DNA of 64,000 nt from Amphiura filiformis. Lineage: Eukaryota. A program made the translations under genes and the position numbers. A model generated the notes under the pieces. That model saw only the letters and a list, made by a program, of their open reading frames with translations, ran no database searches and was not told the origin of the DNA. The stretch is from positions 36,987,911-37,051,910 of the forward strand of contig NC_092646.1 of NCBI RefSeq assembly GCF_039555335.1, given 5' to 3'. Below, one piece after another: positions 2,719-64,000 of this stretch. How positions within the stretch are numbered: position 1 is the stretch's first letter; the number at the start of each line of letters is the position of its first letter.

Positions 2719-2905
2719 GTCAGAAGACGTGCCTTCACATCCACGGTGTATTCCCGTACATTTACATTCCCTACAATGGCACAGAACCATTGGATAAATA
2801 CACATTGCAGTTTGCAAACAGCTTAGATTTAGCCATCCAGGTATCCTTAGGGAGGGCATCATCAACAACGGAACATGTTTTCAAAGTATCCCTCGTCACT
2901 GGAAT
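2719..2905 (+). CDS. REV3L: REV3L-like exon (partial gene). Encodes GQKTCLHIHGVFPYIYIPYNGTEPLDKYTLQFANSLDLAIQVSLGRASSTTEHVFKVSLVTG-.
   Basis: Acceptor tttcatttctag|GT at 2717-18 and donor GGAAT|gtaagt at 2906. The peptide closely matches the N-terminal region of human REV3L as I recall it (GQKTCLHLHGIFPYLYVPYDG...STAQHVFKVSLVSGM). The exon ends in phase 2 and the next exon completes the ATG codon. Confidence 0.85.
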
Positions 2906-2930
2906 GTAAGTATGAACCATCAAATCAGCC

Positions 2931-3135
2931 TTAACCCCATGAGAACTACCTGCCGATTGGCCAAAAATAAGTTTACATTATCAATTGACCCAATCAGCAA
3001 CATTGTTAGAATAATTTCACCACACAAAAAAATTGAGGTGAATTATTTCAAAGCTCCATTCTGATTGGTGATAAAAAGTGAAAATATCATGTAATTGACC
3101 AATCAGAGGCAATGTTAGATCGGCAGGTAGTTCAG
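2931..3135 (+). mobile_element. TTAA-flanked MITE (piggyBac-like), copy 1, 3'-truncated at the duplication junction.
   Basis: Begins ttaaCCCCATGAGAACTACCTGCCGATTGG. Contains internal ccaatcag/ctgattgg motifs. Ends ...gatcggcaggtag. Family TIR is ~24 bp: TTAACCCCATGAGAACTACCTGCC / GGCAGGTAGTGCTCAAGGGGTTAA. Confidence 0.8.
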
Positions 3136-3236
3136 TTTGCAAACAGCTTAGATTTAGCCATCCAGGTGTCCTTAGGGAGGGCATCATCAACAACGGAACA
3201 TGTTTTCAAAGTATCCCTCGTCACAGGAATGTAAGT
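3136..3236 (+). pseudogene. Pseudo-exon: a duplicated 95-nt 3' portion of the 2719-2905 exon, including an intact gtaagt donor.
   Basis: Near-identical to 2811-2911 (QFANSLDLAIQVSLGRASSTTEHVFKVSLVTGM plus gtaagt). It is preceded by ...gtagttcag|, a potential acceptor. Its length of 95 nt is not a multiple of 3. Confidence 0.8.
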
Positions 3237-3255
3237 TTGAACCATCAAATCAGTC

Positions 3256-3460
3256 TTAACTCAATGTGAACTACCTGCCGATTGTCCAAAAAGAAGTTTT
3301 CATTATCAATTGGCCCAATCAGCAACATTGTTAGAATAATTTCACCAGGCAAAAAAGTTGGGGTGAATTATATGCAAAGATCCATTCTGATTGGTGATTA
3401 AAGTGAAAATATCATGTAATTGACCAATCAGAGGCAATGTTAGATCGGCAGGTAGTGCAG
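3256..3460 (+). mobile_element. Same MITE, copy 2, inside the tandem repeat.
   Basis: cttaactcaatgtgaactacctgccgattg ... gatcggcaggtagtgcag. Confidence 0.75.
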
Positions 3461-3561
3461 TTTGCAAACAGCTTAGATCTAGCCATTGAGGTGTCCTTAG
3501 GGAGGGCATCATCAACAACGGATCATGTTTTCAAAGTACCCCTCGTCACAGGAATGTAAGT
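3461..3561 (+). pseudogene. Second pseudo-exon copy, again with the donor retained.
   Basis: Third unit of the 325-bp tandem repeat, slightly more diverged (gatctag, cattgag, ggatcatg). Confidence 0.8.
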
Positions 3562-3580
3562 ATGAACCATCAAATTTTCC

Positions 3581-3802
3581 TTAACCCATGAGAACTACCT
3601 GCCGATTGGTCAAAAAAAAGGTTTTCATTATCAGTTGGCCCAATCAGCAACATTGTTAGAATAATTTCACCACACAAAAGAATTGGGGTGAATTATTTGC
3701 AAAGCTCCATTCTGATTGGTGATTAAAGTGAAAATATCATGTAATTGACCAATCAGAGGCAATGTTACATGTGTAGATTGGCAGGTAGTGCTCGGGGGGT
3801 AA
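3581..3802 (+). mobile_element. Same MITE, copy 3, with a complete 3' TIR.
   Basis: ttaacccatgagaactacctgcc ... gattggcaggtagtgctcggggggtaa. Confidence 0.8.
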
Positions 3803-6459: not shown

Positions 6460-6850
6460 AAAAGAGTAAGATTTAAAGCCTTAATGTATGATTTCCGTTG
6501 AATTTTAATTTTGTTATTCTTTATTCAAAATGTTGAAATAATATTAGTAATAACTTAGGAAGGGTTGATGTCCATTTAAAGTTGAAATAACAAGGTAAAG
6601 TGAAAGAAACCCCACTGGTTATTTTGGCTATTTAACATGCAGTTCTATGGGCGGACATATTATCATAATTTTTAAATTATGATAATATGTCGAACTTTGC
6701 TCTGTTTACCTACAAAGACAACACATTTGGCCGATTCCATTTAGGTGCAAGTTGGGACATGTGTAAACATTACAAATATGCAAAACAATCAGGTTTGAAA
6801 AAAATAAACCAATTTCATATTATAAGATCGTACATTATGGCTTTAATCTT
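6460..6850 (+). mobile_element. SINE/MITE-like dispersed repeat, family X, copy 1.
   Basis: ~80-85% identical to 27860-28350 and, in reverse, to 57940-58300. Shared blocks include gtgaaagaaacc(a/c)cactgg, ccatttaggtg(c/t)aagttgggacat and gtaaacattacaaatatgc. Confidence 0.7.
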
Positions 6851-7346
6851 TCCCTAGAGAAGTCCTTTTCAAAAAGGACTTTCTCTAGGGAAAGATTAAA
6901 TCTTACTCATGTTTACTGACCTAGAGTACCAAGTAATTTCAACTCGAAGATATAAAAAGATTGTCTAGCAATAGCATCATATAATCACCTCAAACAATTT
7001 CTGCAATGCAAAAGAGCAAACATTACAACAAAAATGAGAATTTTTTAATGCTTATGTACATTTTTTTGTAGGGTCCATTTTTCTTCACAACAGTGAATTA
7101 TGGACACTGACAACAAAGTTAGAACACAGAGTACCTAGATGTTTTTCAAAGAACTCTTCTTAGAACAATATCCATCACAAAATTAGACAAAATGGCAAAT
7201 GCTGATCTATATACAAACACAAATACTGAACCATGGAGCAAAACCATCAAAAGAAGACGACTAAACTGGGTACTGGGTAGGTCATCTATACAGACTCCCA
7301 GACGAATCTCCAACAGTCAAGCCCTAATTGGCAAATAGGCTTACAT

Positions 7347-7962
7347 TTTAAAGGGGTACTACACCCCTGGCCAATTTTGTGCCTATTTTTGCAATTTTCT
7401 CATTGATGACAAGTAAGATATGTATATTATAGGGGCAAGGATTACAACTACTGCACTGGAAATTTTATTTCAGCACAGACAACACTTGTGGAGTTACAGT
7501 CAAAAATGAGGGAAAACCACTATTTGATCAATAAATCAATAACTACTTGTCTTGAGTTGCTGAATTTTCAGTGCAGTAGTTATATCTTAAGCGCTTCAGA
7601 CTCCGAGTATTATGCGTACAATATTGTATGTACAATATATGCGTTATTTAATCTATTGCCATTCTATTTCCAGTAATGTTTAAGTTCTAACGAATGTTTG
7701 ATGACGAAAAATCGATAATATGTTACATACAATATCTAGCAGAAATATATTATCGATTTTACGTCATCAAACATTCGTTAGAACTTAAACAGTACTGGAA
7801 ATAGAATGACAATAGATTAAATAACGTACATATTGTACATACAATATTGTACGTACAATAAAAAGTCTGTATACTGCTTTACTTGTCACCAATGCGCTAT
7901 AATTTTTGAGAAAAATGCAAAAATAGGCACAAAATTGGCCAGGGGTGTAGTACCCCCCTTAA
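7347..7962. mobile_element. TTAA-flanked foldback element of ~615 bp.
   Basis: ttaaaggggtactacacccctggccaattttgtgcctatttttgca at 7347-7392 and its reverse complement at 7917-7962 (...cccccttaa). The inner palindrome is 7640-7870. A terminal fragment ggtgtagtacccccttaa also occurs at 54433-54455. Confidence 0.8.
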
Positions 7963-8124
7963 ATCGGGATATATAATAATCACAGAATCAGCTATAAGTT
8001 AATGTCACCATAATAAAATGTTAACTCCACAGATCTCCAATCATATTAACTAACTACTGAGCTCTACTGGTTGATACAAATGATACTTTTACATAATAAT
8101 ATAATTAGAATACATTGTATCAGT

Positions 8125-15944: not shown

Positions 15945-16019
15945 GCCACTATATGGGTATCATTCCAAAGAGCAGCAGTTTCTCAAAATATACTTCTACA
16001 ACCCACTTATGGTCAAAAG
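15945..16019 (+). CDS. REV3L: REV3L-like exon: (M)PLYGYHSKEQQFLKIYFYNPLMVK(R)
   Basis: Acceptor ttcttgcag| and donor AAAAG|gtaagt. Matches human PFYGYHEKERHFMKIYLYNPTMVKR. Phase is consistent with the flanking exons. Confidence 0.88.
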
Positions 16020-19789: not shown

Positions 19790-19871
19790 AGCGGTTGATT
19801 TACTACAAACTGGGGCTGTTATGAATAACGTCTTTCAACCATATGAAGCACACGTTCCTTTCATCCTACAG
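19790..19871 (+). CDS. REV3L: REV3L-like exon: (R)AVDLLQTGAVMNNVFQPYEAHVPFILQ
   Basis: Acceptor tgtttttag| and donor CAG|gtgagt. Matches human ICELLQSGAIMNKFYQPHEAHIPYLLQ. Confidence 0.85.
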
Positions 19872-19890
19872 GTGAGTAGCTATTACACTT

Positions 19891-20150
19891 AAAATCCACA
19901 CTCCCCCTTTGGAAGATTTTGGAAATATCTACCACAGGGGGAGTATGAATTTCAAATGGAATGAACATTTTAGGCAATTCCATTTGAATTTCATACACCC
20001 TCTAAGAAAGAGTCAACCTGTATCTTTCACAGAGGGAGGGTGAATTTCAAATAGATCTACTAATGTGTTCATTCCATTTGAAATTCATACTCCCCCTGTG
20101 GAAGATATTTCCAAAATCTTCCACAAGTGGAGTGTGGATTTTAAGTGGAA
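19891..20150. repeat. Hairpin-repeat family H, 3 units.
   Basis: Each unit has the form attccatttgaaattcatactccccctgtggaagat - loop (atttccaaa) - atcttccacagggg.agtgtg.atttcaaatggaat, giving a ~35-bp perfect stem. The locus starts 20 bp after the donor of exon 19790-19871. Confidence 0.85.
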
Positions 20151-20670
20151 AAGCATGTCTTCCCAAATTCCTTTGAAAGTTTTAAGAACAAAAAGGGTGA
20201 CATGCTTGAACCTTCAAAGACCCTTGTTGATTCAACTTTGCAAAAGATTCAGAAATAAAAAACCCTCCCAAATATCTTATTTGGAGTACACCGCTTGTGT
20301 GGGAGTTTTATAAAGTCACATCTTCCATTGGACATGCTTCACTAGCCTCACCTGAACCAGGGACTGTCTTTTGGAATTTGAAGGAGAGCATTAAATAGCT
20401 CTTCTGGAGCCTTCAAGGAGAGCTGTTTCGAGCATTTACAATAGAATGTAAGGGGAGAATGGTCAACTAAGGAGAGCTAAAAATCACTCACCTATGTCAG
20501 ATTTAAGGAGAGCAGTAGAGTAATGATTGCTATCGCTCTCCTCAAAAGGCAGTACCTGCTGAACACAGTCAATTCAGTTGTACAATTTTCCAAGAGACAT
20601 ACTCATATTCAACAAAATCTACTTATCATCATGATCATTGAGCACAATAAATTATAAACATGTTCAACAG

Positions 20671-20950
20671 GCTATTCCATTTCAAATTCACACTACCCCT
20701 GTGGGAGATTTAGTTTAAGTCTGCTACAGAGGGAGTATCAATTTTGAATAGAATAGGCAGTTCACAGTTGGGTAACTTCCATTTGAAATACTCACTCCAG
20801 TTGTGGAAGATATAAGTAAAACCATCATATGGGGGAGTAAGCATTTCAAAATAATTAACTCTGACCAATTACTTTTGTAAAACATACTCCCTCTGTGGAA
20901 GATATTTCCAAAATCTTTCACAGGGGTAGTATGGATGTCATATGGCATAG
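20671..20950. repeat. Family H, 3 units.
   Basis: Same ccctgtggaagat / atcttccacaggg core. Confidence 0.8.
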
Positions 20951-22039
20951 TGTATTGGACAGGCAGGTGCTGGGAAAATAGATGGACTTCCAGGTATTCA
21001 CTCAGCACTTTACAGAACTAATTTTAGCCAGAAACCTTTTGAAAAAATATTATTTTCAACACGACTGCTTGGATGTAAAACCAGCCACTAAAAGCAAAAT
21101 TGATAAAGACTAGTAACTTGTGATGCTATTTGGAATGGTGTTATCTGTGGCAAAATAAAATGAAATCCTCACAAAAAGAAAGTCCCCCACTTCCAGCAAA
21201 ATGTGTTAAATTATATATTAATTTGAGCCAAACTGAACCATTTTGAAAAAAAAAAAGGAATTCAAATTGTCTATGTATTATACATAGACCATTTTGAAAA
21301 AAAAAAAAATCAAATTGTCTATGTATTTTATATTTCTACATAGCTCAATCCTAATCGTTTATTTAGTACTAACTGGAGATAACAGAAAAAGTTCACTATT
21401 CGACTTAATTTCTTGAAAAAAGAGTCAAAAACATGCATTTTCAGCATGTTTTCTGACAACCGAGTTACAAATATCAAAGGCTTGGGACACTTTTTTGTGT
21501 TACTTTAATTAAATGATTGGTTATAAGAATGGAAGATGTCTTTTCCAAAAATTAGTGCCAAGTTTTTAGTTGTTGGACCAATTGAAGTACTACATTTCTG
21601 TAGAGTTCAACACAGTCTCAGACCTGCCAACTGTCCGCATTTTGCGGGACAGTCCCGCAAGATTCGAAGTTTAAAACCCGAAAATGCGGGCGCCCCGCAT
21701 TCCGCATTTCCGTCCATTGAAAAAAATCATTAAAAAAACCAACAAATTGTCCGATATCGTCTGGCACGAAAGAATTGCGGCGGCGCTATACCTATTTAAA
21801 TGCATTGAAAATGTGGTGGCGCTATTAAAAGCCTGATTAGCACGTGCTTGCGTGTTAAATTCACGTTGCCCATTGTAAATACATTGGATATGTATGAGCG
21901 TTGCCATTAAAAGGAGGCTATTATTTTAGCCTCATCGCTTGGTGCATGGTTCATTGATGCAACATTGTATAACCGATGAATTGCGTATCTTTTTCGGATT
22001 GGTGAAGAGGTTATTTTCAGCTTTTCACTGTGTCAATGT

Positions 22040-22444: not shown

Positions 22445-22529
22445 TTTTTAATGGACTACAATTTGTATGGCATGAACATGCTCAATGTAGCTGCTGTCAA
22501 GTTCAGGAAAACAGAAGAAGATAAACAAG
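22445..22529 (+). CDS. REV3L: REV3L-like exon: FLMDYNLYGMNMLNVAAVKFRKTEEDKQ
   Basis: Acceptor ttcctccacag| and donor CAAG|gtatat. Matches human LFIDYNLYGMNLINLAAVKFRKARRKSN. Ends in phase 1. Confidence 0.85.
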
Positions 22530-22537
22530 GTATATAA

Positions 22538-22755
22538 TTAACCCCATGAGAACTACCTGCTGATTGGTCAAAAAGAAGTTTTCATTATCAATTGGACCAA
22601 TCAGCAGCAACATTGTTAAAATAATTTCACCACACAAAATAATTGGGGTGAATTATTTTCAAAGCTCCATTCTGATTGGTGATTAAAATGAAGATATCAT
22701 GTTATTGACCAATCAGAGGCAATGTTAGATCGGCAGGTAGTGCACAGGGTGTTAA
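22538..22755 (+). mobile_element. Same MITE family, full length, flanked by TTAA on both sides.
   Basis: ttaaccccatgagaactacctgctgattgg ... gatcggcaggtagtgcacagggtgttaa. It starts 9 bp after the donor of exon 22445-22529. Confidence 0.85.
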
Positions 22756-24662: not shown

Positions 24663-24798
24663 AATCATCAGAACCCCTGTCAGGAAGTAGCAAGCATTCT
24701 GGGAGTAGTGATGATACATTGAACCAATCCACCCAAGGCAGTGGGTCATCGAGGTCAAGCGTAAACAGGCATGTGTGGACCAAAGACACCATACCCAG
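24663..24798 (+). CDS. REV3L: REV3L-like exon: ESSEPLSGSSKHSGSSDDTLNQSTQGSGSSRSSVNRHVWTKDTIP-
   Basis: Acceptor ccacatgtag| and donor CCCAG|gtaaga. Phase 1 in and phase 2 out are consistent. Weak similarity to human ...LFRWEQDEIPS. Confidence 0.7.
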
Positions 24799-30730: not shown

Positions 30731-30980
30731 TATAAAATCCACACTACCCCTGTGGAAGATTTTAGAAATCTTTTGGGTGAGCATGAATTTCAAATAGAAT
30801 GAGCACATTTGCAGCTCTATTTGAAACTGGCCCTCCCTCAGTGGAAGATTCAGATTGAATCTTTCTCAGAGAGTGTATAAACTGCCTAATGTGTTCATTG
30901 TATTTGAAATTCATACTCCCCCTGCGGAAGATATTTCCAAAATCTCCCACAGGGGTAGTGTGTATTTTAAATTGAATAGC
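30731..30980. repeat. Family H, 3 units.
   Basis: Same structure. Confidence 0.8.
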
Positions 30981-31289
30981 ACAATATTCATGGATTCAAG
31001 ATTTTTTTCTATTGAGATGTACTCTCTGGAAAATACCTGATGATACCAACTTCCCATCACATCATTCATGCACAGCTGCACGGGCAATTTATAGCAATTT
31101 CCGACATGTGTCCCTGTAATAGGTTTTCAGCTATCTGTGTTTCTATTGATAGTATTTATTGATGTAATCCAATTTTTTTCCCATTCTGATGAACATGTTA
31201 TCTACTGATGATAGTATTTACTTCATACAAGATATATAACATGAATTTATACAAAGCATTTCATTAACAGGGGTAGTAGAAATATTTGT

Positions 31290-33720
31290 GTTAAAATAGG
31301 TGTACTACATAGCATTATCTACTGATAGTATTGAATAGTAAGTCCTGAAATATGTGCGATGAAGTGGGTTACAATTTATCTACTGGAGGTAGCATTGAAA
31401 ACTTCAGTGGAATGTGTGTAATAAATTGGACATGCTATGTACTGAAGATAACACTGAAAACTTAAATGGAATATGTGTGATGAAATGTATTACACAAACT
31501 TTAAATAGACATGCTACAAAAACAATGTATCTACTGAAGATAGCATTGAAAACTTGATTGGAATATGTGTAATAAAACAACAAAGATACTATCTAGTATC
31601 TACTGAAGATATAGCATTGAAAACTTGACTTAAATATGTGTGATGAAATGTATTACACAATTTAAAAAAAAAGGCATGCTAGAAAAACAATGTATCTACT
31701 GAAGATAGCATTGAAAACTTGACTTGAATATGTGTGGTGAAATGTATTGAATGCAAACTTTAAAATAGACATGCTATCTACTGAAGATAGCACTGAAAAC
31801 TTGACTTGAATGTGTGTGGTGAAATGTATAAATGCAAACTTTAAAATAGACATGCTATCTACTGAAGATAGCATTAAAAACTTGACTTGAATATATGTGA
31901 TGAAATGTATTACACACATTTTAAAATAGACATGCTATCTACTGAAGATAGCACTGAAAACTTAACTTGAATATATGTGATGAAATGTATTACACAAATT
32001 TTAAAATAGACATGCTATCTACTGAAGATAGCACTGAAAGATTGACTTGAATGTGTGACAAATTATATTAAATGCAACTTAAAAATGGACATGCTATCTT
32101 CTGAAGATAGCATTAAACACTTGCCTGGAATGTGTGTAATAAAATGGACATGCTATCTACTGAATATAGCATTGAAAACTTGACTTGAATATGTGTGGTG
32201 AAATGTATTACACAAACTTTAAAATAGACATGCTATCTACTGAAGATAGCACTGAAAACCTGACTTGAATCAACATTGTGACGAATTGTATTAAATGCAA
32301 ATTTAAAATGGACATGTTATCTTCTGAAGATAGCATTGAACATTTGACTGGAATGTGTGTAATAAAATGGACATGCTATCTACTGAAGATAACACTGAAA
32401 ACTTAACTTGAATATGTGTTATAAAATGTACATGCTATCTACTGAAGATATAGCATTGAAAACTTGATTTATGTATATTTGGTGAAATGTATTACACAAA
32501 CTTTAAAATAGACATGTTATCTACTGAAGATAGCACTGAAACATTGACTTGAATGTGTGACAAATTGTATTAAATGCAACTTTAAAATGGACATGTTATC
32601 TTCTGAAGATAGCATTAAACACTTGACTGGAATGTGTGTAGTAAAATGGACATGCTATCTAAGAAGAAAGCACTGAAAACTTGACTTGAATATGTGTGGT
32701 GAAATTTATCACACAAACTTTAAAATGAACATGTTATCTACTGAAGATAGCACTGAAACATTGACCGAAACATGTGAAAGGAAAATGGATGTATGCTATC
32801 TACTAAAGGAAGCACTGAATTCTTGAAATATATTATGCCAACTTCAAAATAGATATGCTATCTACTGAAGATAGCACTGAAAACTGGAATATGTGTGATA
32901 AATTGGACATGCTATCTTCTGAAGATACCACTGAAACCTTGACATGAATATGTGCAGTTAGATGTATTACACCAACTTTAAATTGGACATGCTGTCTACT
33001 GAAGATAGCACTGAATGCTTGAATGAAACGTGTGTAATGAAATGGATATATGCTATCTACTGAAAATAGGAATTCTTGACATGAATATGTGTGATGAAAA
33101 TTATCACACAAACTTTAAAATGAACATGTTATCTACTGAAGATAGCATTGAATGCATGACTGAAACATGTGTAATGAAAATGGATGTATGCTATCTACTG
33201 AATTAAGGAAGCATTGAATTTTTGAAATATATTACACCAACTTCAAAATGGATATGCTATCTACTGAAGATAGCACTGGATGCTTGACTTGAAAGATGTA
33301 TGATGAAATGCTATCTACTGAAGATAGCACTGAAAACTTGACTGCTATCTTCTGAAAGATACCACTGAAACCTTGACATGAATATGTGCAGTTAGATGTA
33401 TTACACCAACTTTAAAATGGACATGCTATCTACTGAAGATAGAACTGAATGCTTGACTGAAATATGTGTAATAAAATAGTCACATTAGACATTCTATCTG
33501 CTGAAGGTAGCACTGATTCTTGACTTACAGATTCATGATGAAATGCTATCTACTGAAGATACTAAAATTTTAACTGGAATATGTGTAATAAATTGGATGT
33601 GCTGTCTACTGATGATAGCACTGAAAACCTTGGCTTGAATATATGTTTGATGAAATATATTACACAAACTTTTGCTATCTACTGAAGGTAGCAAGCAGTC
33701 AAAACTTGACCTGACACTCA
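31290..33720. repeat. Satellite array, ~82-bp unit x ~30.
   Basis: The unit is gacatgctatctactgaagatagcactgaaaacttgacttgaatatgtgtgatgaaatgtattacacaaactttaaaata. The core gctatctactgaagatagc is itself a near-palindrome. The ORFs 31662..31919, 32833..33111 and 33533..33721 are artefacts. Confidence 0.9.
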
Positions 33721-34184: not shown

Positions 34185-34900
34185 GGAAGCACTGAATTCT
34201 TGAAATATATTACACCAACTTCAAAATGGATATGCTATCTACTGAAGATAGCACTGGATGCTTGACTTGAAAGATGTATGATGAAATGCTATCTACTGAA
34301 GATAGCACTGAAAACTTGACTGCTATCTTCTGAAAGATACCACTGAAACCTTGACATGAATATGTGCAGTTAGATGTATTACACCAACTTTAAAATGGAC
34401 ATGCTATCTACTGAAGATAGAACTGAATGCTTGACTGAAATATGTGTAATAAAATAGTCACATTAGACATTCTATCTGCTGAAGGTAGCACTGATTCTTG
34501 ACTTACAGATTCATGATGAAATGCTATCTACTGAAGATACTAAAATTTTAACTGGAATATGTGTAATAAATTGGATGTGCTGTCTACTGATGATAGCACT
34601 GAAAACCTTGGCTTGAATATATGTTTGATGAAATATAATACACAAACTTTTGCTATCTACTGAAGGTAGCAAGCAGTCAAAACTTGACCTGACACTCATC
34701 TCCAGTTTTGAACCAGAGCTCCGGCAGCTCCCCCATTTGACTTTCTTCACATAAACTTTGATGAAAATATTATGTGTTTTCTCACAATTTAAGATCAAAA
34801 CTACCCAAGAAAGCTTTATATCATGCATAAAACATCAACATTTTCACAGAGATGCCAATTTCCCAAATTAATTTGGAATTTTTTGCAATTTTTACAAAAA
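34185..34900. repeat. ~715-bp segmental duplicate of 33195-33910, covering the satellite's 3' edge and its unique flank.
   Basis: The two blocks are near-identical (~99%) and separated by ~275 bp of unique sequence. The ORF 34511..34828 (-) duplicates ORF 33533..33721. Confidence 0.85.
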
Positions 34901-34985: not shown

Positions 34986-35083
34986 GTCTCAATGGTTGGA
35001 TGAGGATGTAACAAGACAAAGTACCTGTGACTTAGAGGCAGATGCCGTCGCTGTCGATATATTAAATAGATTGGAAATAGAAG
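34986..35083 (+). CDS. REV3L: REV3L-like exon: (R)SQWLDEDVTRQSTCDLEADAVAVDILNRLEIE-
   Basis: Acceptor tgtttttcag| and donor GAAG|gtgagc. Matches human PQSTCELDVDAVAADILNRLDIEAQ. Confidence 0.82.
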
Positions 35084-37787: not shown

Positions 37788-38270
37788 TGTTCCATTTGAA
37801 ATCTATACACCCCCTGTGGAAGACATGACCTTAATCTTCCACACAGGGAGTGTAAATTTCAAATGGGATTGCCTGAATGGGCGATTCCATTTGAAATGGG
37901 ATTGCCTAAATGGTGATTCCAGTTGAAATTTACACCCCCTGTGGAAGACATGACCTTAATCTCCTACACAGGGAGTGTGAATTTCAAATGGGATAATCTG
38001 AATGGGTGATTCCATTTGAAATCTACACCCCCTGTGAAGGACATGACCTTAATCTTCCACACGGGGAGTGTGAATTTTAAATGGGATAGCCTGAATGGGC
38101 GATTCCATTTGAAATCTACACCCCCTGTAGAAGACATGACCTTGTCTTCCACACAGGGAGTGTGAATGGGGTAACCTGAATGGGTGGCTCCGTTTGAAGT
38201 CTACACCCCTTGCGCAGGAGAGAAAGATCATGTCTTCCATAAGGGGTATGGATTTCAACTGGAATAGCAC
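37788..38270. repeat. Family H, ~6 units with internal tandem duplication.
   Basis: Repeated gattccatttgaaatgggattgcct.aatgg. The ORFs 37964..38152 and 38049..38306 (-) are artefacts. Confidence 0.8.
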
Positions 38271-38425: not shown

Positions 38426-38700
38426 TTATTCCATTTAAAATCCACACTACCCCTGTGGAAGATTTAGCTCAAGTCTGTCACAGAGGAAGTATCAATTTTG
38501 AATAGAATTGACAATTGGGAAACTTCCATTTGAAATACTCACTCCAGCTGTGGAAGATATTGGTAAAGCCATAATACAGGGGAAGTATGGGTTTCAAAAT
38601 GATTATCTCTGGCCAATTACATTTGAAAAACATACTCCCCCTTTGTACGATATTTCCAAAATCTTCCACAGGGGTAATGTGGATTTCAAGTGGAATAGCC
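38426..38700. repeat. Family H, 3 units.
   Basis: Same structure. The ORFs 38478..38723 (-) and 38508..38894 (+) are artefacts. Confidence 0.8.
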
Positions 38701-40367
38701 CAATACATGTACACAAAGTACAACTGGGAATGAATACTGTAAAACTACTTTTTTTTAATTTAATTTTTAATTTAATTTTTTTTATTTATTTGTTCGGGAT
38801 TTTGACAACCCTGGATAACCCAAGCTCTATTGAAGCTTATTTCCATTGGGGTCCATTTGAATACCGGGACGGGTTGGGAACAGTCAGGGGTTAACACCCT
38901 ACTCTTTTCGAAATTGGCTGTGAGATACATGTACAGGTATGGCTCTCTGCCACTTAATTTCGCTGGGGATATAATTTCGCTAATTTAATACACACTAATC
39001 TGACAGTTTTACATGTTTTGTTTGCTGAATTAGTGAAATTAAATATCAATGAAAATGGTAGTCCTTGGAAATGAGCAAAATCAAGAACTAGCAAAATTAA
39101 ATAGCTTTACAGTATATGTGATCTTATTGCACATTTAATGTGGAAGGGTGAGGTTATTGTCTGTTTGTTTGATGCTTGCTGTGATCAGTTGTCAACAGAA
39201 ATATTGTTTGATAAATTAGAATGTGAACTAAAGGGTGCAAACCACCAAATCAAGTTCCTATTCTTCTATGTGTTAAAAGGTATAGATAAATTGATAATTT
39301 TCTCATGATTAAAACTCCCTGGTTCATTCAAAACACCATTTTGCCTAATGTTTATGATATCTTCTACCATATAACCAATAATTTTTTGGTAGGTAAGCAG
39401 TAGTGGTGCACCATTTTGCCTAATGTTTATGATATCTTCTACCTTATAACCAATAATTTTTTGGTAGGTAAGCAGTAGTGGTGCATTGAAAACTACGTAA
39501 ACCCTATCAATCTTACAGCACACTGTCTTTATGAAGTGACATCATATGGTGGCGTAGATCCAATAACATACCTCAAATTTCAGAATGTAATCTTTTTATG
39601 CTTAGATGTTGAGAAAACCATCCACTAAAGTACAGTTATCACAAAAAAAATCAGGCATATCAGCATTCTTTTCAATTTTTTTTGTCATGAAATCAAGCCA
39701 GTATGGTTCTCAGAATGAAAACACTGTATTTTTTGGTATCAGCCATTTAGCTCTGATCCAATTTGGTGTTGTGAAATCTAAACATTTGGAAAGACTTCAC
39801 TAAATATGTGTACACAAAGTTGAAGCTGAAATAAATCAATAGGGCATCGCACATTGTAAGTTAGAAATAATATTGTCTGTTCTATGTTTGTTTGCTTGCT
39901 TTATGACTTGCTGTGTTAAGTTTTAATATTAACACAAGTAAAATGACCTGTACTCAATTTTTCAGAAAATAAATCTTGAATATTATTTACATATATACCA
40001 GTATTCAGATCATTACTTTATGTGAATTTTTTTATATGCCCATAAGGTACTTTTATGGGAAATGCACCATTGGGCACAATCAGGGTTGTAGCGACGGTGG
40101 CGGCGCTGGTCGGCAATAACCAGTTCAGCCTGACTGACCGGCACTCATGGGAATTAATGGGTCTTGCCGACCAGCACTAAAATGACAAATTGTCCTCAAA
40201 ACAGCTGTCAAATGCCATTACTGTCTTGAAGTAATTGGCATTCTGATTCAATTTTCTCTTAATTTTAGCCGGCACTAAACTTTGACTAGCTACAGCCCTG
40301 GCTGCACAATTTGACCCGATTTGTTTTTATGGGCACAATTTGACCCAATTTGTTTTTATGGTTGCAG

Positions 40368-40472
40368 GGGCAGTGGGTGCGAATCCTGGCTTGGTAGCTA
40401 TCTGGGAAGATGAGAAACAAAGGAGAGAGTTGCTGGGACAATTGGATGACTTAGTGCCGCCATCCTCACCAG
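40368..40472 (+). CDS. REV3L: REV3L-like exon: GAVGANPGLVAIWEDEKQRRELLGQLDDLVPPSSP-
   Basis: Acceptor tggttgcag| and donor CACCAG|gtgaga. Matches human GGNPGLQAIWEDEKQRRR. Confidence 0.82.
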
Positions 40473-45802: not shown

Positions 45803-46892
45803 GGTGTCCCAAAAGTAACTTAACATTGTGAATTTGCCATAACTTGCGTTGGGTTAATAGTGTTGTTACAAAAATTGCACAGAATGTAGATAATATTTTT
45901 AGAAATGTTATGATACCAAACATCCATATGTGGTCATGATCCTTTAACATGAAATTAGCGAATATTTACCGTACCGTAAAACCCACTTTTATAAACGCAA
46001 AATAAGTCTCGTCATTTGAGACGTGATAACACGATATATAACGTGTTATTGTTTTAAAATCTGTTTTGTTTAAGTTGGCTGTGTTTGTTTGTTTGTTTGT
46101 TTTCAATGCGTAATCTTCATTTTCTGGTTTATCTGGATTTTATATGGAAACTGCTTTTCTTTTCTGCGGATTTGATGAACAGTTGTACGCGGTACATAAT
46201 TGGAAGTCGACGTACTGATCGTCTTGGGCTTTTCGCCACCGCTCTTCGTATGACATCGATGTTTGTAGCCGATCTTCCTGTTCTTCCACGTCCTGCCGAG
46301 GTAGATCATGAACAGATCCAGTTGATAGGAATTTATGCACTAGTTGCTGGATTGTATTTCGGCTGGGTGCATAATTTACATTAAAATTTTCCTTAAACTT
46401 TGCTTGAATGAGTTTGTCCGACTTTGTCTCGGCTCGGCAAAGAACCATACGATCTGAATCCGTTGATCTATAGGAAATTCATCTTCACTTCAACTGTTTT
46501 AAAGTAAAGTTTAATATTGTCAATATATCCTAATTATAATCTAAAACAGCAGTCACGCTTATGCTAGGCCATGTAATCCATGAATGTTCATACCTAAATG
46601 TAGCGTGTGCAGTGAGTGAACCAACTCTATTGTTCAGGAAAGCACATTATAATGAATAATTATTCATGTGCTTGAATAAAAAACATATGAGCTTGCTTTT
46701 GTGGGTTTGATACACACATGTGTACACCCCTACAGTAGGTCAAGGGGTCGTCAATAATGCTGTTTTTGGTATCAGAATAATTCTAAAAGATCAATCTATG
46801 TGAATATGTTCTCCATTTTGGTATGAAGTAGGAAATATTTGAGATATGGCAAATTCACAATGTTAAGTTACTTTTGGGACACGCTGTATGAC
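45803..46892. mobile_element. Non-autonomous Tc1/mariner-like element with 38-bp TIRs.
   Basis: gtgtcccaaaagtaacttaacattgtgaatttgccata at 45804-45841, and its reverse complement at 46853-46890. Confidence 0.8.
46140..46448 (-). pseudogene. Remnant of the N-terminal HTH of a Tc1-like transposase.
   Basis: The ORF peptide ...SRNTIQQLVHKFLSTGSVHDLPRQ... resembles the Tc1 motif (S.QTIVRKYKHHGTT...RSGR). There is no DDE domain and the frame decays afterwards. Confidence 0.5.
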
Positions 46893-50117: not shown

Positions 50118-50202
50118 ACCGTGTTGATTTGCCCGATGTAGAGAGTGAGCTGCGTGGCAAGGCTAGACTACAGGAAATAATCCAAGACCACATGAATCAA
50201 CT
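50118..50202 (+). CDS. REV3L: REV3L-like exon: DRVDLPDVESELRGKARLQEIIQDHMNQ-
   Basis: Acceptor tgttttttccag| and donor CAACT|gtaagt. Similar to human ...KKFQKRLQEILKQ. Phase consistent. Confidence 0.75.
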
Positions 50203-50823
50203 GTAAGTGGATGGTAAAATGTTAGAAATGACAGAAATGTGCATATAGTTCAACCACTTTTATAAGGACTTCTTTTAAACAGATATCTCCATTATCTGGC
50301 TGACCAGTTGCCTTGGGGTCAGTGGTTTGAACTATCTGATTGGTAATAAGTTAAGGGGTCAGTGGTTTGAACTAAGTAAAGGGGTCAATCCTATCTGATT
50401 GGTGATAAGTAAATCCACACCTGCAAAGGGCATTTGAATGAAAAAACCATGCTGAACAATATGTACTCTTTAAATTTGAGGAGCTCATAATCAACAGGAA
50501 TTGTTGGGCTTTTTACCACTGCACCAAAAAGTAAGAGTGATATTAATAGTTGACCTGTCTGGTCTACATTATGTGTGTTAAAGAAAGTAGACAAAAGACT
50601 AGTTTGTGATACTTATTGGTAGATGTCGCAAGACAATTCTCGAAGTAAAATATATTGATATTAATCCGCGATGTCACAAGTCCCGCCGATTGCAAGCTGA
50701 TCAAACAATATTTCAATCCCATTTATCTCCATCATCTGGCTAGCCACTGGCCCTATGGCCAGTGGCTACAAGTGTCTGATTATAATTAGTGATAAGTAAA
50801 TCCACGCCTGCAAGGTGTTTGAA

Positions 50824-51037
50824 TTAACCCCATGAGAACTACCTGCCTATTGGTCAAAAAGGAGTTTTCATTATCAATTGGACCAATCAGCAACATTGTT
50901 AGAATAATTTCACCATGCAAAAATGGGGGTGATCGAATTATTTGCAAAACTTCATTCTGATTGATTAAAATGAAGATATCATGTAATTGACTAATCAGAG
51001 GCAATGTTAGATTGGCAGGTAGTGCTCAAGGGGTTAA
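50824..51037 (+). mobile_element. Same MITE family, full length, flanked by TTAA on both sides.
   Basis: ttaaccccatgagaactacctgcctattgg ... gattggcaggtagtgctcaaggggttaa. Confidence 0.85.
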
Positions 51038-52516: not shown

Positions 52517-52665
52517 GAAAGAAGCTGGTTGTGAAATGTTGACCCAGTCTATACTGGATGAAGAGTCACAGACCGATGATGACCTTAAATCACCATCTCA
52601 ACCCCAGGGTGCCGAATCACCTATTCCAAGCAGCCAGATAGATTTCCACCTGTCTCAAGAAAGAG
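52517..52665 (+). CDS. REV3L: REV3L-like exon: LKEAGCEMLTQSILDEESQTDDDLKSPSQPQGAESPIPSSQIDFHLSQER-
   Basis: Acceptor caccttaacag| and donor AAGAG|gtaaca. The frame stays open and the phase is consistent with its neighbours. No direct homology check was possible. Confidence 0.65.
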
Positions 52666-55214: not shown

Positions 55215-55328
55215 ATGAAGATGGTCCACCAATGTTAGTAAGAGAAGATACAGAGCCTGTGGTTGATGAAGATTTAGTGTATTCCTTTCTGGATTCTTCA
55301 CAGCCTTCAACAGCATCTCTGAAAAAAG
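55215..55328 (+). CDS. REV3L: REV3L-like exon: DEDGPPMLVREDTEPVVDEDLVYSFLDSSQPSTASLKK-
   Basis: Acceptor ttgtctccaacag| and donor AAAAAG|gtattg. Phase consistent. Confidence 0.65.
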
Positions 55329-56057: not shown

Positions 56058-56224
56058 ACCAAGAACTTGTTGATCTGCTACTTGAGCTTGCGCACGGTGA
56101 CACCCAAATGGAAGAACCAGAAGAAGGAAGCATCCTCTCCGCCAAGCTGCCAAGGATGATGGCGACACCCCTCTGGCAGCTAGCCAGGTGGCAGGAGGCG
56201 AGAGACGAAGAGGACAATGAGGAG
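56058..56224 (+). CDS. REV3L: REV3L-like exon part 1: DQELVDLLLELAHGDTQMEEPEEGSILSAKLPRMMATPLWQLARWQEARDEEDNEE
   Basis: Acceptor ctcatgatcag|. This frame runs into a TAA at 56228-30 unless the 38-nt GT..AG segment 56225-56262 is removed (see findings). Confidence 0.6.
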
Positions 56225-56262
56225 GTGTAATGGATGCCTTGGAGTCACTACACATGTCACAG

Positions 56263-56375
56263 GCCTGGGACGATGAGACACCAAAGAATGAGATGGAAGA
56301 TGGAGATGATGATGACGAGGAGGAGGTGGAGGATGAAGGGGGAGAGGAAGGAGATTTGTATAATACCCCAAATAG
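56263..56375 (+). CDS. REV3L: REV3L-like exon part 2: AWDDETPKNEMEDGDDDDEEEVEDEGGEEGDLYNTPN-
   Basis: Acidic open frame that ends at the classic donor AATAG|gtaagg. It joins in frame to part 1 only through a 38-nt excision. The alternative is a frameshift in the assembly. Confidence 0.55.
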
Positions 56376-57564: not shown

Positions 57565-57677
57565 TACTCTAGAAGAACTTGAAGATGCCTTGATATCAAT
57601 CACCAATGCTGATGAAGCACAGAAGTCTGCTTTACCTCAGTATGATGGACCTGGTGATGAAGAAGAAGAACCAGCAG
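57565..57677 (+). CDS. REV3L: REV3L-like exon: STLEELEDALISITNADEAQKSALPQYDGPGDEEEEPA-
   Basis: Acceptor tgatttcttacag| and donor GCAG|gtaggg. The same frame appears in the supplied ORF 57479..57730. Phase consistent. Confidence 0.7.
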
Positions 57678-58426: not shown

Positions 58427-58545
58427 ATTCCAGATGAAATCCATACACCCCCCATGTGCATTTCAAACAGAGTTACCTCAATGGATGAATCCATTTGAAA
58501 TTGACACCCCCGGATATATATATGGATATCAACTGGAAGAGCCCA
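58427..58545. repeat. Family H, degenerate ~1.5 units.
   Basis: ccatacaccccccatgtgc...ccatttgaaattgacaccccc. Confidence 0.6.
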
Positions 58546-59963
58546 TTGGTTTTTCCGTCCTGGTCCTCTAACCTGTCTTATTGTAAGTTCAGTGTGTTCT
58601 CGTTAATAACGTTACTTGAGTGCGTGTACATACTTTTACTGGCAGCGATCAACGTGCCGCATATGTACACGCAAGAAACTATGTTAAGCCAACGCAGCAC
58701 ACGCTGAACTTCAAAGCTAGTGCCGGTGACTCGAGGTAGATATACAGACTATAACCAATTAACCATGTTCACGCCAGAAAAGGTTATCATCCGATGAACA
58801 TTGGTTGATCTTTATTATACCATTTTCACCGATGTGGCAGTGACAGCAGTGTGCATTTCATTGGGTGCAGCTTCAAATGGCTGGTGTTTGCTCACAGTGC
58901 TGACGTACACATGCACATGATTAAAGATGCTGCATAGATGCGCAGACGAAACAGCTGCCTAAATGTGTTGACCTCACTGCCACACCAGGGTGAAAAATGG
59001 TATAGGTAATTACGTGTAATTATGATCAAATGAAGATATAGTTCCATTCACTTATGCACAAGCCTGTTATTAGTGGTTGCTTAGCAACAAAGTATACTCC
59101 AGGTGGGAACATATGGTCATTAGGCTGCTTGTTACTCGGTAATGAATTTAATTTGAATGAAGCTTCATTCACTTGATAAGCTTGCTTAATTCGATTAAGC
59201 AATCACTTAATCAAATGAATTTCTGTATGAATGACGATTAGTTAATAATGATCAATGAATAGATGTGCGTTCACGTCGGGAAGAACTCAGTTTATAATCT
59301 TCATGAAAAGGAAATCCCTTTGTGCGATCGGGGATACATGCAGAGGTTTTTTGATTGGCAGTTTGGGCCACAGAGGCAACTGAGCAGAGAAGTATAACGA
59401 TAAAACATAAATCTCATAATGCTATATAACCTTTTTTTTATATGCATAAATAGCACAAACGTTTGGAAAAGGTCTCAAACAAATAATGAAGACACTGATA
59501 CGATGATGAAATTGCATTAGTTGGGAAATATCTGCGTCGCAATGTGTTGTTTTGGTTTTTGGAATTTGACTTCAAAATTTACGACTTCATGACATTATCA
59601 TTGGAAAGCAACAAAAGATTTCAACAGTTTATATGGCATCATTCTTTAACTAGAGTTTGTTAAGCTTGTATGTGAAATAGCTTGAAAACAGCCTTGACCT
59701 AAAAAAAGGCGAGAGGTGCCATATTCAGGCTAAATTCAAAATTGATATAAAATGTTTGTTTTTTGATCGATTACAAAAATTAATTTTTGTAGTTAAAGGA
59801 AATTGTGTCTGTCAATCATTACACTACAATTTTTATTACTTGGGCTTTTTAATTTCTTTAAATAGTTTTTTACAATGATAGAGTGAATCCCCTGGCCCTC
59901 TATAATTACGCACAATGATCTCGCCACCTTAATGATTTCCTTATGTTTTTTTTCCTCACATAG

Positions 59964-62900
59964 CACTGGTACCAGTAGTGGAAGTGGAAACCAAGAGAAG
60001 AAGAAATATTCAAAAGCCAAGCAGGTACCTTGAAGATGATGACTTCTACTTTGTACCCAGTATTAAACCAAAATCAGCACAAGGCAAGAAGAAGCAGCGA
60101 AAGAAAAACATCAAGAAAAGCAACTTTGATACACCATCAACTAGCGGTACTGATGCAAGCAATAACAGCCCAAAAGATAAACTTTTGAAAGAGTTTGTGA
60201 TCAAGATAACGGATCGATTCGATGAGGAGATGATCAAAAAGATCCCGTACTGGAATCCAGTTTTAGAAGTTAGAAAATTGAGTCATGATTCAATCGATGA
60301 GTTTGTAGGGTTTGGACGTGCGAAGGAAGGGCAGGACAAGGACGACGGAACAATATGGGGTGTAAAACAGGATTCTTTAAGCAAAGGAATGGTCAAAAAG
60401 ACTCTGGGTATAAAAAGCATCAATGCAACAACTCAAGACTTGTTGAGTAAAGCGCCACCTTCCCATAAGAATCAGACATCTTCTAGCAAGAAAGTGCCAG
60501 TGAAAAGAACTCTAGGTATTAAGCGTAGAAGAGAACCTAGCGGCGACGCCAGCGATTCAAGCAACACAAGCGCCGCTAGCCACTACTACAGCATGCGCAC
60601 AAAACGGGAACGAGTCATGTACAGGGAAGATGATGACTTTGACGAGATATTGGAGCTGACTGATTATAGCAGGACACGCGGCGATGAAGTCGACGATGGG
60701 GATGATGATGATGATTCCGATGTCGATAGGGACTTGAAGTCCTGGAAGACGTACGATAGCCCAATGCGATATAAGCAACCTTTGGTGATTTTGAACAAAG
60801 CAACATTGTCGCAAACAATAAATTCAGGAAAAGGTAGAAAAAGCACGATACAGCATACAAAATTCATATCGAAACTGTCTAGCGGTAGAAAACATCAACA
60901 AAAGGAAGAGAGCGTTCTTTCCGATTTGTCTATGGAAACCGATAATGATAGTGCAGTTGAGGTTATCGAAGAAACCACCTCGGATGAAGATGAAATTACA
61001 GTACCTGAGGATGATATGGCTATGAATAATGTACCATTAGTTGGATCAAAAGAGATGGTAGATAGTGACCCAGTTAGCACTGGAAGTGAGGAGTGTGATG
61101 TTGTGTCGCCCACATTGTTCGAAGATACAATCATTTCCCCTCAAAGTACTGCTGAAGCTAGCAGGGGCGAGCAGGAAGAGTCGATGGGTGTAAGCTCACT
61201 ACCGGAGAAAAAGGACGGTGGAAATGCTGCAGCACCAAGCCAAGATACCAGCGATATAAATGATAGCAAATTATATCCCATCCATATGGGAGATAACGCT
61301 CGTAGTCGTATTTACAGCTCGTTGCCTGCAAGTCCAACGAGAGAAGGAATGCCGCCATTCCGTCGCGGTTGCAGGACTCGCGGTGGTAAACGACACTTTG
61401 GACAAGCGCCATCTAGGGCCAGCTCTTACTCGCCGGATCAGTGGGGTCCACCAATGTTCAGAATAGGTACGGATGAAAGTAAAGAAGAATATTGTGATGT
61501 TATGTGGAGGCTGTCGTATTTCTCCCCGCTTCGCCCGGATCCAGAGCCCTCTCCACCGCGGGCTTGGTCACCAACGCGCCTAGCAATGAACTCAGAAGAC
61601 AACGTGCCTTGGATTAGTGGAAATAATTACGATGCAAAGAAAAATGGTGACATCCTGACAACCCTTTCTTGCTTTGACAGTGATCAGATGATGCAAGAGA
61701 TGGCCGAATTTGGACGAGATCATGATCTCTTCCAGTCCTTCACTTGTCAACCCAACGAGAACATTGAAGTGACTGGAGAGGGCGCTAGTAAGATTGTGCC
61801 TGAAGATTCAGAGGCGACGAGGAGTAAAGACACAGCAGAAACATCGATGGAATTTGATGCGGTACCTGAATCGCAATCTGAAGAGGATGAGAGCACAGGA
61901 GGAGAAGTTAAAACAACTACTCTATCAGTGGGTGAACCAAATAACAATATCGGTTCTGGCTGTGATGAGAAGAATCCATCAACTTACGCTGGAGAGTCTA
62001 AAGTGTCTGATCTGACATCGCAGCAAGATGACGATGCTGCAGCTAAGAAATATGAGCCCATTAAGCCTCTTGAAATGAGAGGGGACCCATCGAAGAAAGT
62101 CGTCGGGACAGTGCATCCAACTCAACATGTGAAATCAACAGAGAATGAACTTGAAAGGCAATCTTCAGAAGAAAGTGATAAAGTACTGTTTGATTTAGAC
62201 CAAGGTAAAATTGAAACGGCAGCGATAAAAACGAGGGCAGACAGTCTGTCTGCTGGACTGAAGTCGCCACTTGATGCGGATCCAAATGTCTCTATGGTGC
62301 CATCTTCTAATCCGATGAGTTTGATGTCGCCGACAGGTCATCCATCGAGATTCTTTCCAGTACTAAAACAAAATGATGCTATTGCACCAAAAGACTCAAC
62401 TTCTTTAAATGACATTCATGACACAAATACCTCTGTAAGTGGAGGAGAAATGAAAATGAGTTTACAAGAAGATGAAGTTCAGAATCGGACAGATCCACCA
62501 GCAACTACAGATAGTCAGCAAAGTGATTCCTCATCACCTTTGACCCCAGGTCAAAGGCAACAGGAAACAAGACACTCACCGACCCCCAACTCCCCATCAG
62601 ACTCTGAGGATTCTTCTAACGAAGGCAAGAGCACCTCAAGCACTCCTGTAGACTTTGACTTTCTGTCTACCCTAGATGAGAAGACGGACAAAACCAGTGA
62701 TGAAATAATGAGTAATGTTGGTAGTACTTCAGTAGGCAATGAGTTGTCCACCGAACCAGCATCTGGTGATTTAAGCGAGGTAGCAGATGTGGAGCATTCT
62801 GATGGGACTGAAACTCCAGCAAGTAATGTTGTTACACCTTGGAAGACTTTCTCCAGCAACTTCATGACACCAGTTAAAGCTGCTAATGGGGATTCATTGT

Positions 62901-64000
62901 CTTTCGGATCAAATGAGGGAGATAGTATCGCAGGATCTAAAAGTATTAATTCGGGTATAGCGCAAGGTGACGATCAAAGTAAACCTTCAGAAACATTTAC
63001 AGGTGATGCTTTGACCTCAGCGAAAGCAGATGAAGGTAGCTTGAACAAAGATGTTGCCACTTTTGAAAGACCTCAAGCAGGTCTGTCAGATATGGAATAT
63101 AGCAGTAACTCAGGGTGCCAGACATTCTCATCAACTGACGACATCATGACGCCAGTGAAAACTCCTTTGGAAACATGTGCAGATGATGTTTTGACCACAG
63201 TGAAAGCAGATGAAGGTAGCTTGAACAAAGATGTTGCCACTTTTGAAAGACCTCAAGCGGGTCATTCGGAAATGGAAGATAGAGGTAACTCAGGGTGGGA
63301 GACATTCTCCTCAACTGACGACATCATGACACCAGTGAAAACTCTTTTGGAAACATGTGCAGATGATGTTTTGACATCACTGAAAGCAGATGAAGGTAGC
63401 TTGAACAAAGATATTGCCACTATTGAAAGATCTCAAGCTGGTCAGTCGGAAATGGAACATGGAGGTAACTCAGGGTGGGAGACATTCTCCTCTACTGATG
63501 ACATCATGACGCCAGCAAAAACTGCGCTAAGTAGTGAACAGACTGCTGTAAATCGTGAACAATCCTTACCGGATTCAGACGAGGAAAATGCTGTATCACA
63601 AAGTACTAAATTAGATGTGGTGGAAGAAACAACTCTAACATGCAGCTCCAATATCAGCGATAGCAAGGATACAGTGCTAAAGTCATCATTGCCTATTTCT
63701 GAAATTTCGAAAGTTGAAATTACAAATGATGCTGTTGCCATGGAGAATGATCCAAGTGGCAAATGTGAAAATGTATCAGAGTCATTATTACCAAGTTCTG
63801 GTAAAACACAGGAAGTTTGTGCTGTGGAGATACATGAGGAAGGTCAATTGGACAAAGGGTCCTCTTTGTTAGGTTTAGACTCTAAAATTCAAAAACCTGA
63901 GATGCCAAATTCGGAACCCTTACAGGAGGCATCAGAAAGTGATGATTTTAGTCAAGAAAAAATTGCTGCAAGTGAAAAGGATCTGGATCCAGCAGGCATG
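59964..64000 (+). CDS. REV3L: REV3L-like giant exon, 3'-partial. More than 1340 codons are open to the window end. The product is a Ser/Asp/Glu-rich, low-complexity central region.
   Basis: Acceptor tttttttcctcacatag| at 59962-63. A single frame stays open for ~4.04 kb in sequence that is otherwise stop-rich. It joins in phase 1 to the previous exon. This is the counterpart of the ~4 kb exon known in vertebrate REV3L. The only minus-strand ORFs here are short antisense shadows. Confidence 0.85.

Follow-up and report, generated by a model that had tools for sequence, protein, structure and literature searches.

The 5′ half of a REV3L orthologue, with its giant central exon, in the brittle star Amphiura filiformis

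A thirteen-exon REV3L fragment

The stretch of DNA analysed here (64,000 nucleotides of Amphiura filiformis contig NC_092646.1, positions 36,987,911 to 37,051,910 of the forward strand; hereafter the window) carries the 5′ half of a single-copy REV3L orthologue, as attested with high confidence by orthology, exon structure and intron conservation. REV3L forms the catalytic subunit in DNA polymerase zeta (Pol zeta), a B-family enzyme that extends mispaired or damaged primer ends in translesion synthesis, and knowledge of the family suggests that the brittle-star protein would act in the same way. The locus is an ordinary, deeply conserved fragment of a housekeeping gene, made up of 13 exons on the + strand between positions 2719 and 64000 (Table 1) and 12 introns. 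Exons 1-7, in the numbering of the window, encode the conserved REV3L N-terminal domain, which lies packed onto the catalytic core in Pol zeta and Pol delta. They are followed by exons 8-12, which encode a fast-evolving acidic linker, and by exon 13, the giant central exon, which corresponds to human exon 14 and whose product is probably an insert that is mostly disordered and includes a DUF4683 (KIAA2022/NEXMIF-like) region in degenerate form. Residues 1-46, from the first coding exon, are predicted to be encoded upstream of the window, while the inactive-exonuclease, polymerase and Cys-rich C-terminal domains (PF03104, PF00136 and PF14260) would be encoded downstream of it.

The gene model was built from tblastn searches with nine database REV3L proteins and from a profile of their N-terminal 500-650 residues, and exon 5, an exon without sequence conservation, was placed by an exhaustive phase-constrained search. 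All 24 splice sites are canonical (AG acceptor, GT donor), with a pyrimidine-rich tract preceding each of the acceptors. An initial annotation of this DNA had counted thirteen to fourteen + strand exons with GT..AG borders, the first of them starting at 2719 in phase 1; the 13 exons reconstructed here bear out the count, the borders and the start. Together they hold 5584 nt of coding sequence, in a window with a GC content of ~35% that rises to 43-45% in the last 4 kb. Exons 1-11a form one open frame of 429 codons and exons 11b-13 a second one, 11a and 11b being the two parts of exon 11 on either side of a break in the reading frame.

The least certain border of the model is the acceptor of exon 5, for which in-frame alternatives exist at 24672 and 24684. 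The exon as placed was the top-scoring candidate of the required phases, carries the W-x-x-[DE]-x-IP motif of the orthologues and lies at conserved intron positions. Because a profile search for REV3_N (PF24065; MFSVRIVT...VPVxRxFG), and with it the first coding exon, gave no match in window positions 1-2718, and because this exon is a separate 139-nt exon further upstream in both the goby and the snail genes described below, we place it beyond the 5′ end of the window. Under bacterial start rules no open reading frame (ORF) reaches 150 residues, since the giant exon extends past the window end.

Table 1. Exons of the REV3L fragment and other features, in window coordinates
Feature	Position	Strand	Length and entry phase	Translation or content	Evidence and remarks
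Exon 1 (REV3L coding exon 2)	2719..2905	+	187 nt, phase 1	GQKTCLHIHGVFPYIYIPYNG...KVSLVTG(M)	tblastn (nine REV3L orthologues), lowest E 5e-23; Pfam POL3_N match
Exon 2	15945..16019	+	75 nt, phase 2	PLYGYHSKEQQFLKIYFYNPLMVK	tblastn
Exon 3	19790..19871	+	82 nt, phase 2	(R)AVDLLQTGAVMNNVFQPYEAHVPFILQ	tblastn
Exon 4	22445..22529	+	85 nt, phase 0	FLMDYNLYGMNMLNVAAVKFRKTEEDKQ	tblastn and alignment of intron positions
Exon 5	24663..24798	+	136 nt, phase 1	Ser-rich linker, ending ...VWTKDTIPR	Phase-constrained search
Exon 6	34986..35083	+	98 nt, phase 2	SQWLDEDVTRQSTCDLEADAVAVDILNRLEIE	tblastn and profile
Exon 7	40368..40472	+	105 nt, phase 1	GAVGANPGLVAIWEDEKQRRELLGQLDDLVPPSSP	tblastn
Exon 8	50118..50202	+	85 nt, phase 1	DRVDLPDVESELRGKARLQEIIQDHMNQ	Profile match, E = 0.17, collinear with the other exons
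Exon 9	52517..52665	+	149 nt, phase 2	Variable acidic linker	Canonical sites, phase-consistent; intron position common to snail, sequence not conserved
Exon 10	55215..55328	+	114 nt, phase 1	...EPVVDEDLVYSFLDSSQP...	Weak collinear profile match; fits orthologue motif VVDEEAILxLLExSQ
Exon 11	56058..56375	+	318 nt, phase 1	11a: DQELVDLLLELAHGD...DEEDNEEV; 11b, in another frame: MDALESLHMSQAWDD...LYNTPN	
Frame break in exon 11	56225..56232	+		GTG TAA TG	In-frame stop TAA 56228-56230 overlaps ATG 56230-56232
Exon 12	57565..57677	+	113 nt, phase 2	STLEELEDALISITNADEAQKSALPQYDGPGDEEEEPA	Conserved PQ[FYLV]DG motif; identical to residues 49-86 of RefSeq XP_072019148.1, tblastn stretch extending to residue 89 at 95%
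Exon 13 (giant central exon)	59964..64000	+	at least 4037 nt in the window, phase 1		Open at its 3′ end
Putative DUF4683 island 1 (weak)	60575..60886	+		YSMRTKRERVMYREDDD ... PLVILNK...INSGKGRK	7.5 bits over profile positions 7-95; collinear with island 2
Putative DUF4683 island 2	61421..61594	+		EYCDVMWRLSYFSPLRPDPEPSPPRAWSPT	BLASTP without SEG, E = 8e-6 to whale-shark REV3L
In-frame tandem repeat in exon 13	62990..63523	+	180 bp (60 residues) x 3		90% matches
Tandem triplication at exon 1/intron border	2806..3767	+	period 325 bp		92% matches
Miniature inverted-repeat transposable element (MITE)	22538-22755, 50822-51037, 2931-3131 (and two tandem copies)		~215 bp	TTAA flank; four CCAAT/ATTGG boxes	
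Transposase remnant	46143-46478	-	112 codons	Open stretch in intron 7-8	DUF4817 helix-turn-helix, E = 1.8e-7

Assignment of the gene to REV3L

The concatenated translation was searched against a collection of 5.8 billion proteins. Matches were obtained to the DNA polymerase zeta catalytic subunit (REV3L) of vertebrates, amphioxus, insects, cnidarians, sponges and plants, spanning the N-terminal ~200 residues at 45-59% identity with E down to 1e-79. Beyond these there were only two matches, a RefSeq model from A. filiformis at 100% identity and an ORF from a second brittle star that covers the giant exon. Almost all database matches from outside the brittle stars are to REV3L/Pol zeta, and no other polymerase gave a better match, so that the identity first proposed for this gene stands.

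The Pfam domain POL3_N (PF24055) was matched over profile positions 1-81 of 81 (E = 4.5e-27, 94.8 bits). Among solved structures, yeast Rev3 was the best match with 68.5 bits versus 46.5 bits for human Pol delta (POLD1), and on the strength of this lower score we rejected the possibility that the gene is a Pol delta paralogue. POL3_N, the signature of the B-family N-terminal fold, is common to the brittle-star gene, yeast Rev3 (PDB 6V8P, 7LXD) and human POLD1 (PDB 6S1M). Unlike the brittle-star REV3L, however, POLD1 has no central insert, and yeast Rev3 carries only a short insert where the giant exon stands (PMC6895278). When aligned to a mammalian REV3L, the first four exons of the window are identical at 87 of 138 residues (63%) with a single one-residue gap, a level indicative of clear orthology, although well short of the near residue-for-residue agreement with human REV3L that the initial annotation had described.

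Exon-intron structure compared with goby, snail and human

For comparison we used the REV3L loci of the goby Mugilogobius chulae (L001/P0022) and the pond snail Lymnaea stagnalis (L003/P0126), whose annotated proteins were mapped exactly onto the DNA. The snail gene consists of exons of 139, 187, 75, 82, 76, 139, 98, 105, 85, 80, 177, 214 and 143 nt followed by a giant exon, with entry phases 0,1,2,2,0,1,2,1,1,2,1,1,2,1. From the second coding exon onward this phase series equals that of the brittle star, and six of the lengths are identical (187, 75, 82, 98, 105 and 85 nt, corresponding to window exons 1, 2, 3, 6, 7 and 8). In the goby, three of these lengths recur (75, 105 and 85 nt; window exons 2, 7 and 8), exon 1 has the same phase, and the phases match throughout except for one absent intron between window exons 3 and 4, the equivalent of exon 3 being fused there with the next exon. 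The linker exons 9-12, in contrast, differ in length between the brittle star and the other two species. In a three-way protein alignment, intron positions within conserved regions coincide or lie at most 3 columns apart. The claim that the exon order is that of REV3L thus holds for the order and the phases alike, in comparison with both the teleost and the snail gene.

The giant exon starts in phase 1 in all three species, 9 residues past PQYDG in the brittle star and 6 residues past the motif in goby and snail, its form across the three being PQ[YFV]DG. Its size differs considerably, from 2.7 kb in the goby to at least 4037 nt within the window in the brittle star and an open frame of at least 8.6 kb in the snail. 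In human REV3L, exon 14 measures 4162 bp and encodes 1386 residues (PMC4699697), and the central insert is described as encoded by a single exon and variable in size between species (PMC6895278). Human and mouse REV3L share with the brittle star the presence of one giant exon of similar size (4.16 kb in human versus at least 4.2 kb) that is entered after PQxDG. These comparisons support the view that exon 13 is the equivalent of human exon 14, as the initial annotation had proposed from a size above 4 kb, and to the size can be added the homologous phase-1 start and the EYxDVMxxLxYxS...SPPRxWSP island. Because the exon and its phase-1 junction are common to an echinoderm, a teleost and a mollusc, the goby and snail gene structures also support the suggestion that the giant-exon architecture is ancient, and the exon would have been kept at least since the protostome-deuterostome (bilaterian) ancestor.

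Content of the giant central exon

A stop-free scan of the + strand delimited 1355 codons at 59936-64000. The translation of the giant exon is 100% identical to RefSeq XP_072019148.1, annotated as "uncharacterized protein [Amphiura filiformis]" on the 60.07-Mb scaffold, and this model continues for at least 64 codons past the end of the window before it ends in a tail of 19 residues. S, D, E, T and K are abundant in the giant-exon product, which has a net basic charge over its first ~200 residues and a mostly acidic remainder. Whereas human and mouse REV3L have a long positively charged domain, the brittle-star insert is strongly acidic instead.

Pfam gave no domain at all in the giant exon. 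Default BLASTP with SEG yielded no non-ophiuroid match for it, and such matches appear only without SEG or by profile. A custom profile of the DUF4683 regions of four vertebrate REV3L proteins matched in two collinear segments, with 24.9 bits overall versus 9.7 for the best of 500 shuffles. The second segment (island 2) corresponds to the conserved EYxDVMxxLxYxS...SPPRxWSP; for the first (island 1), BLASTP to whale shark and amphioxus gave E = 1.9, which is suggestive only. Both islands are present in the giant exons of snail and amphioxus as well. The EYxDVM...SPPRxWSP island is also common to human and mouse REV3L, although outside the two short islands the giant exon cannot be aligned with theirs. 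The sequence therefore points to a DUF4683 island that is present within a domain that is degenerate.

Further towards its 3′ end, the giant exon contains the in-frame tandem repeat of 60 residues (Table 1), with the pattern ...ADDVLT[ST][VL]KADEGSLNKD[VI]AT[FI]ER[PS]QAG.SEME..GNSGWETFSSTDDIMTP.KT..., which appears to be lineage-specific. The first ORF of the second brittle-star contig stops short of the region of this repeat.

Giant exons in other invertebrate assemblies

This second contig (JAAUXV010182626.1, from the brittle-star-like assembly GCA_013332995.1; L004 370-4968) holds a homologous giant ORF with 48% identity over ~960 residues. Its giant exon measures at least 4.5 kb and is interrupted by one in-frame TGA (L004 3355-3357), leaving 995 + 537 codons. 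In its distal part FQSQTSAFT[AV]IKPK[MV]VP is conserved with A. filiformis, and the contig also carries LLRPMKPALDPP...HQRAFWSRPQD, which resembles the vertebrate REV7-binding region.

In Lymnaea stagnalis (L003 20665-29292, GCA_964033795.1) the giant exon stays open in one frame for at least 2876 codons and runs off the end of the locus. The gene table divides it into six or seven consecutive "genes", and its first ~200 residues form an extreme Q/S/P/Y-rich low-complexity tract. In Branchiostoma belcheri (GCA_025402995.1, L002 23001-28437) the corresponding region lies in overlapping open stretches in all three frames and appears in the annotation as four or five separate genes, suggesting that the amphioxus draft is frameshifted in its giant exon too. 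Fragmented annotation of the giant exon seems to be common across invertebrate genomes.

A frame break in exon 11

The initial annotation described a continuous, phase-consistent reading frame, a claim that fails in exon 11, where one in-frame TAA is followed by a change of frame. The first 170 nt of this exon are in the upstream frame, while exon 11b (MDALESLHMSQAWDDETPK...), exon 12 and the giant exon are mutually in register but off register with the upstream part. At its actual length, the exon does not connect the phase 1 in which it is entered with the phase 2 in which it would have to be left, for which 319 or 316 nt are needed. Goby and snail have one homologous exon here, entered in phase 1 and left in phase 2, and the orthologues, including a sea-urchin-like protein (...SDSDDEDSPELEAQAEKEMSQAW...), continue without a break. 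The assembled sequence at the break is GAGGAGGTGTAATGGATG, and the stretch around it (GAGGAGGTGTAATGG) contains GT copies.

Several observations weigh against reading the window as part of an intact REV3L gene. Besides the interruption of the frame at 56228-56230, there is no RefSeq protein model over exons 1-11a, and the 5.8-billion-protein collection contains neither a protein covering exons 1-11a nor an A. filiformis transcript-derived protein across the break. On the giant exon, Pfam DUF4683 (PF15735) gave no match at E <= 1, and the REV7-binding consensus phi-phi-x-P-x-x-x-x-P-S-R (PMC6895278) is absent from the 1345 giant-exon residues within the window. Past the window end, the RefSeq model carries a candidate REV7-binding motif, VIKPKVVPTGR, which is conserved as AIKPKMVPS in the second brittle-star contig. 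Moreover, the polymerase domains fall outside the window, and catalytic competence cannot be read from the part within it.

Most likely, the break is a 1-nt deletion or a 2-nt insertion error of the assembly, or else a variant of the sequenced haplotype, and not a feature of the gene, since it is the sole disruption in 5584 coding nt, no splice site is damaged, and conservation extends over both halves. The A. filiformis assembly derives from R9.4.1 nanopore reads and has a quality value (QV) of 31.6, corresponding to 6.8e-4 errors per base, with 3.2% heterozygosity (PMC11310086). At this QV, ~4 residual errors are therefore expected in 5.6 kb of coding sequence. XP_072019148.1 covers only the part after the break and begins at the very ATG that overlaps the stop, which is exactly the start that a longest-ORF rule would yield on a frameshifted transcript model.

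It is very unlikely that the break is real and that the locus is a decaying, non-functional REV3L pseudogene giving no full-length protein. Such decay would account for the in-frame TAA and the frame change, for a RefSeq model that is confined to the post-break part and has an end resembling read-through sequence, and for the pseudo-exon triplication that adjoins exon 1. However, a single disruption in 5584 coding nt, a 4-kb exon that has stayed open despite an AT-rich genome (35% GC), canonical sequence at 24 of 24 splice sites and the retention of conserved residues and intron phases relative to snail and fish are not what a decaying gene would show. The islands of the giant exon are furthermore conserved with the second brittle-star assembly at an overall identity of only 48%, suggesting purifying selection on these motifs, and the error rate of the assembly suffices for one indel.

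A small unrecognised intron within exon 11 (e.g. with donor ACG|GTGACA at 56096 and acceptor at 56222 or 56225), which would give the window 14 exons and no defect, is highly improbable. The earlier count of "thirteen to fourteen" exons hints at such an intron, and in formal terms the frame can be repaired by 86 GT/GC..AG combinations, of which two retain MDALESLHMSQAW. After enumeration of all GT/GC..AG pairs, however, no credible frame-restoring splice was found, as each either deletes MSQxW, a motif conserved from sponge to human, or uses a purine-rich acceptor (GAAGAGGACAATGAG|) without a pyrimidine tract. The segment to be excised is also coding-like, with an acidic DEEDNEE run of the kind that precedes E-x-E-L-S-x-x-MSQ in all orthologues, and goby and snail have a single uninterrupted exon at this position.

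The chance seems equally slight that the break is genuine in another sense, with one ORF directly following another through an overlapping stop-start, UAAUG (56228-56232), and hence a naturally split Pol zeta. If so, the N-terminal domain and the rest of the protein would be made as separate polypeptides, through termination-reinitiation or an internal start, and would then reassemble. The positive support for this arrangement is limited to the assembled sequence and the RefSeq start codon.

Finally, it is scarcely credible that the giant ORF constitutes a gene of its own, lying downstream of a short one for a Pol zeta/delta-like N-terminal domain only: although XP_072019148.1 is a stand-alone RefSeq model of an "uncharacterized protein" and several genomes have short "Pol zeta-like" N-terminal models (e.g. 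Lytechinus, 338 residues), the first exons of the RefSeq model (56230-56375 and 57565-57677) align inside full-length REV3L (MSQxW, PQxDG), the giant-exon junction has the position and phase of that in full-length goby REV3L, the DUF4683 islands are present, and the short models elsewhere are fragments of draft annotation.

Repeats and mobile elements

As far as tested by tRNA, Rfam and Pfam scans, the window contains no other gene, in agreement with the initial annotation. No tRNA genes and no Rfam families were found in it, and among the longer intronic ORFs the sole significant Pfam match is the DUF4817 helix-turn-helix fragment of the transposase remnant in Table 1. The same annotation had regarded a "remaining ~64 kb" as intronic repeat sequence, which is an overstatement: about 58 kb is non-coding, and 25.5% of the window consists of sequence repeated within it, with the highest density at 30-36 kb, where satellite-like arrays of 59-80 bp lie.

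The tandem triplication at the 3′ end of exon 1 had previously been missed. Its unit comprises the last ~98 nt of exon 1 with their GTAAGT donor, followed by ~26 intronic nt and by a MITE of ~200 bp. In copies 2 and 3, which represent pseudo-exon ends, QFANSLDLAI[Q/E]VSLGRASSTT[E/D]HVFKV[S/P]LVTGM is still encoded and the donor is kept, at 3230 and 3555; were such a copy included via the CAG immediately upstream of it, the transcript would gain 95 nt and its frame would shift. The MITE is truncated at its 3′ end exactly where the repeat units of the triplication meet, which points to a transposon-associated duplication. The MITE itself has imperfect terminal inverted repeats of the CCC...GGG type (CCCCATGAGAACTACCTGC / GCAGGTAGTGCACAGGG) and looks piggyBac-like. 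Two of its three independent insertions lie 9 and 26 nt past REV3L donors (those of exons 4 and 1, respectively), an observation made post hoc on small numbers.

An interspersed repeat family is represented by at least 12 copies on both strands (including 19894-20960, 25163, 26092, 30737-30990 and 38440-38700). It carries the pseudo-peptide (F/L)(E/K)IHTPPVEDxxxIFHRGSxNFKWN, for which there is no Pfam match. One copy lies ~20 nt past the donor of exon 3, and related units form a 93-bp tandem array at 37889-38167. Intron 5-6 contains a satellite-like block (31436-33377 and 34287-34355) of nested 59-, 80-, 137-, 161- and 223-bp tandem repeats with the core TATCTACTGAAGATAGCACTGAAAACTTGAC. Directly 5′ of the acceptor of exon 7, a 29-bp x 2 tandem duplication (40304-40361, 96% matches) covers the likely branch-point and pyrimidine-tract region.

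Implications

The value of these results lies mainly in the repair of the annotation, as the central part of REV3L figures in RefSeq under the name uncharacterized protein, and the gene is both split and misnamed there. With no model over the exons of the N-terminal domain in the protein collection searched, an orthology survey of DNA-damage-tolerance genes would miss or mis-size Pol zeta in A. filiformis, which is a regeneration model. More broadly, the giant exon would have remained one exon from the bilaterian ancestor onward, with drift in both sequence and length (from 2.7 kb to at least 8.6 kb). It thereby offers a useful data point on how ultra-long exons are maintained, one that extends, rather than changes, the statements of existing reviews.

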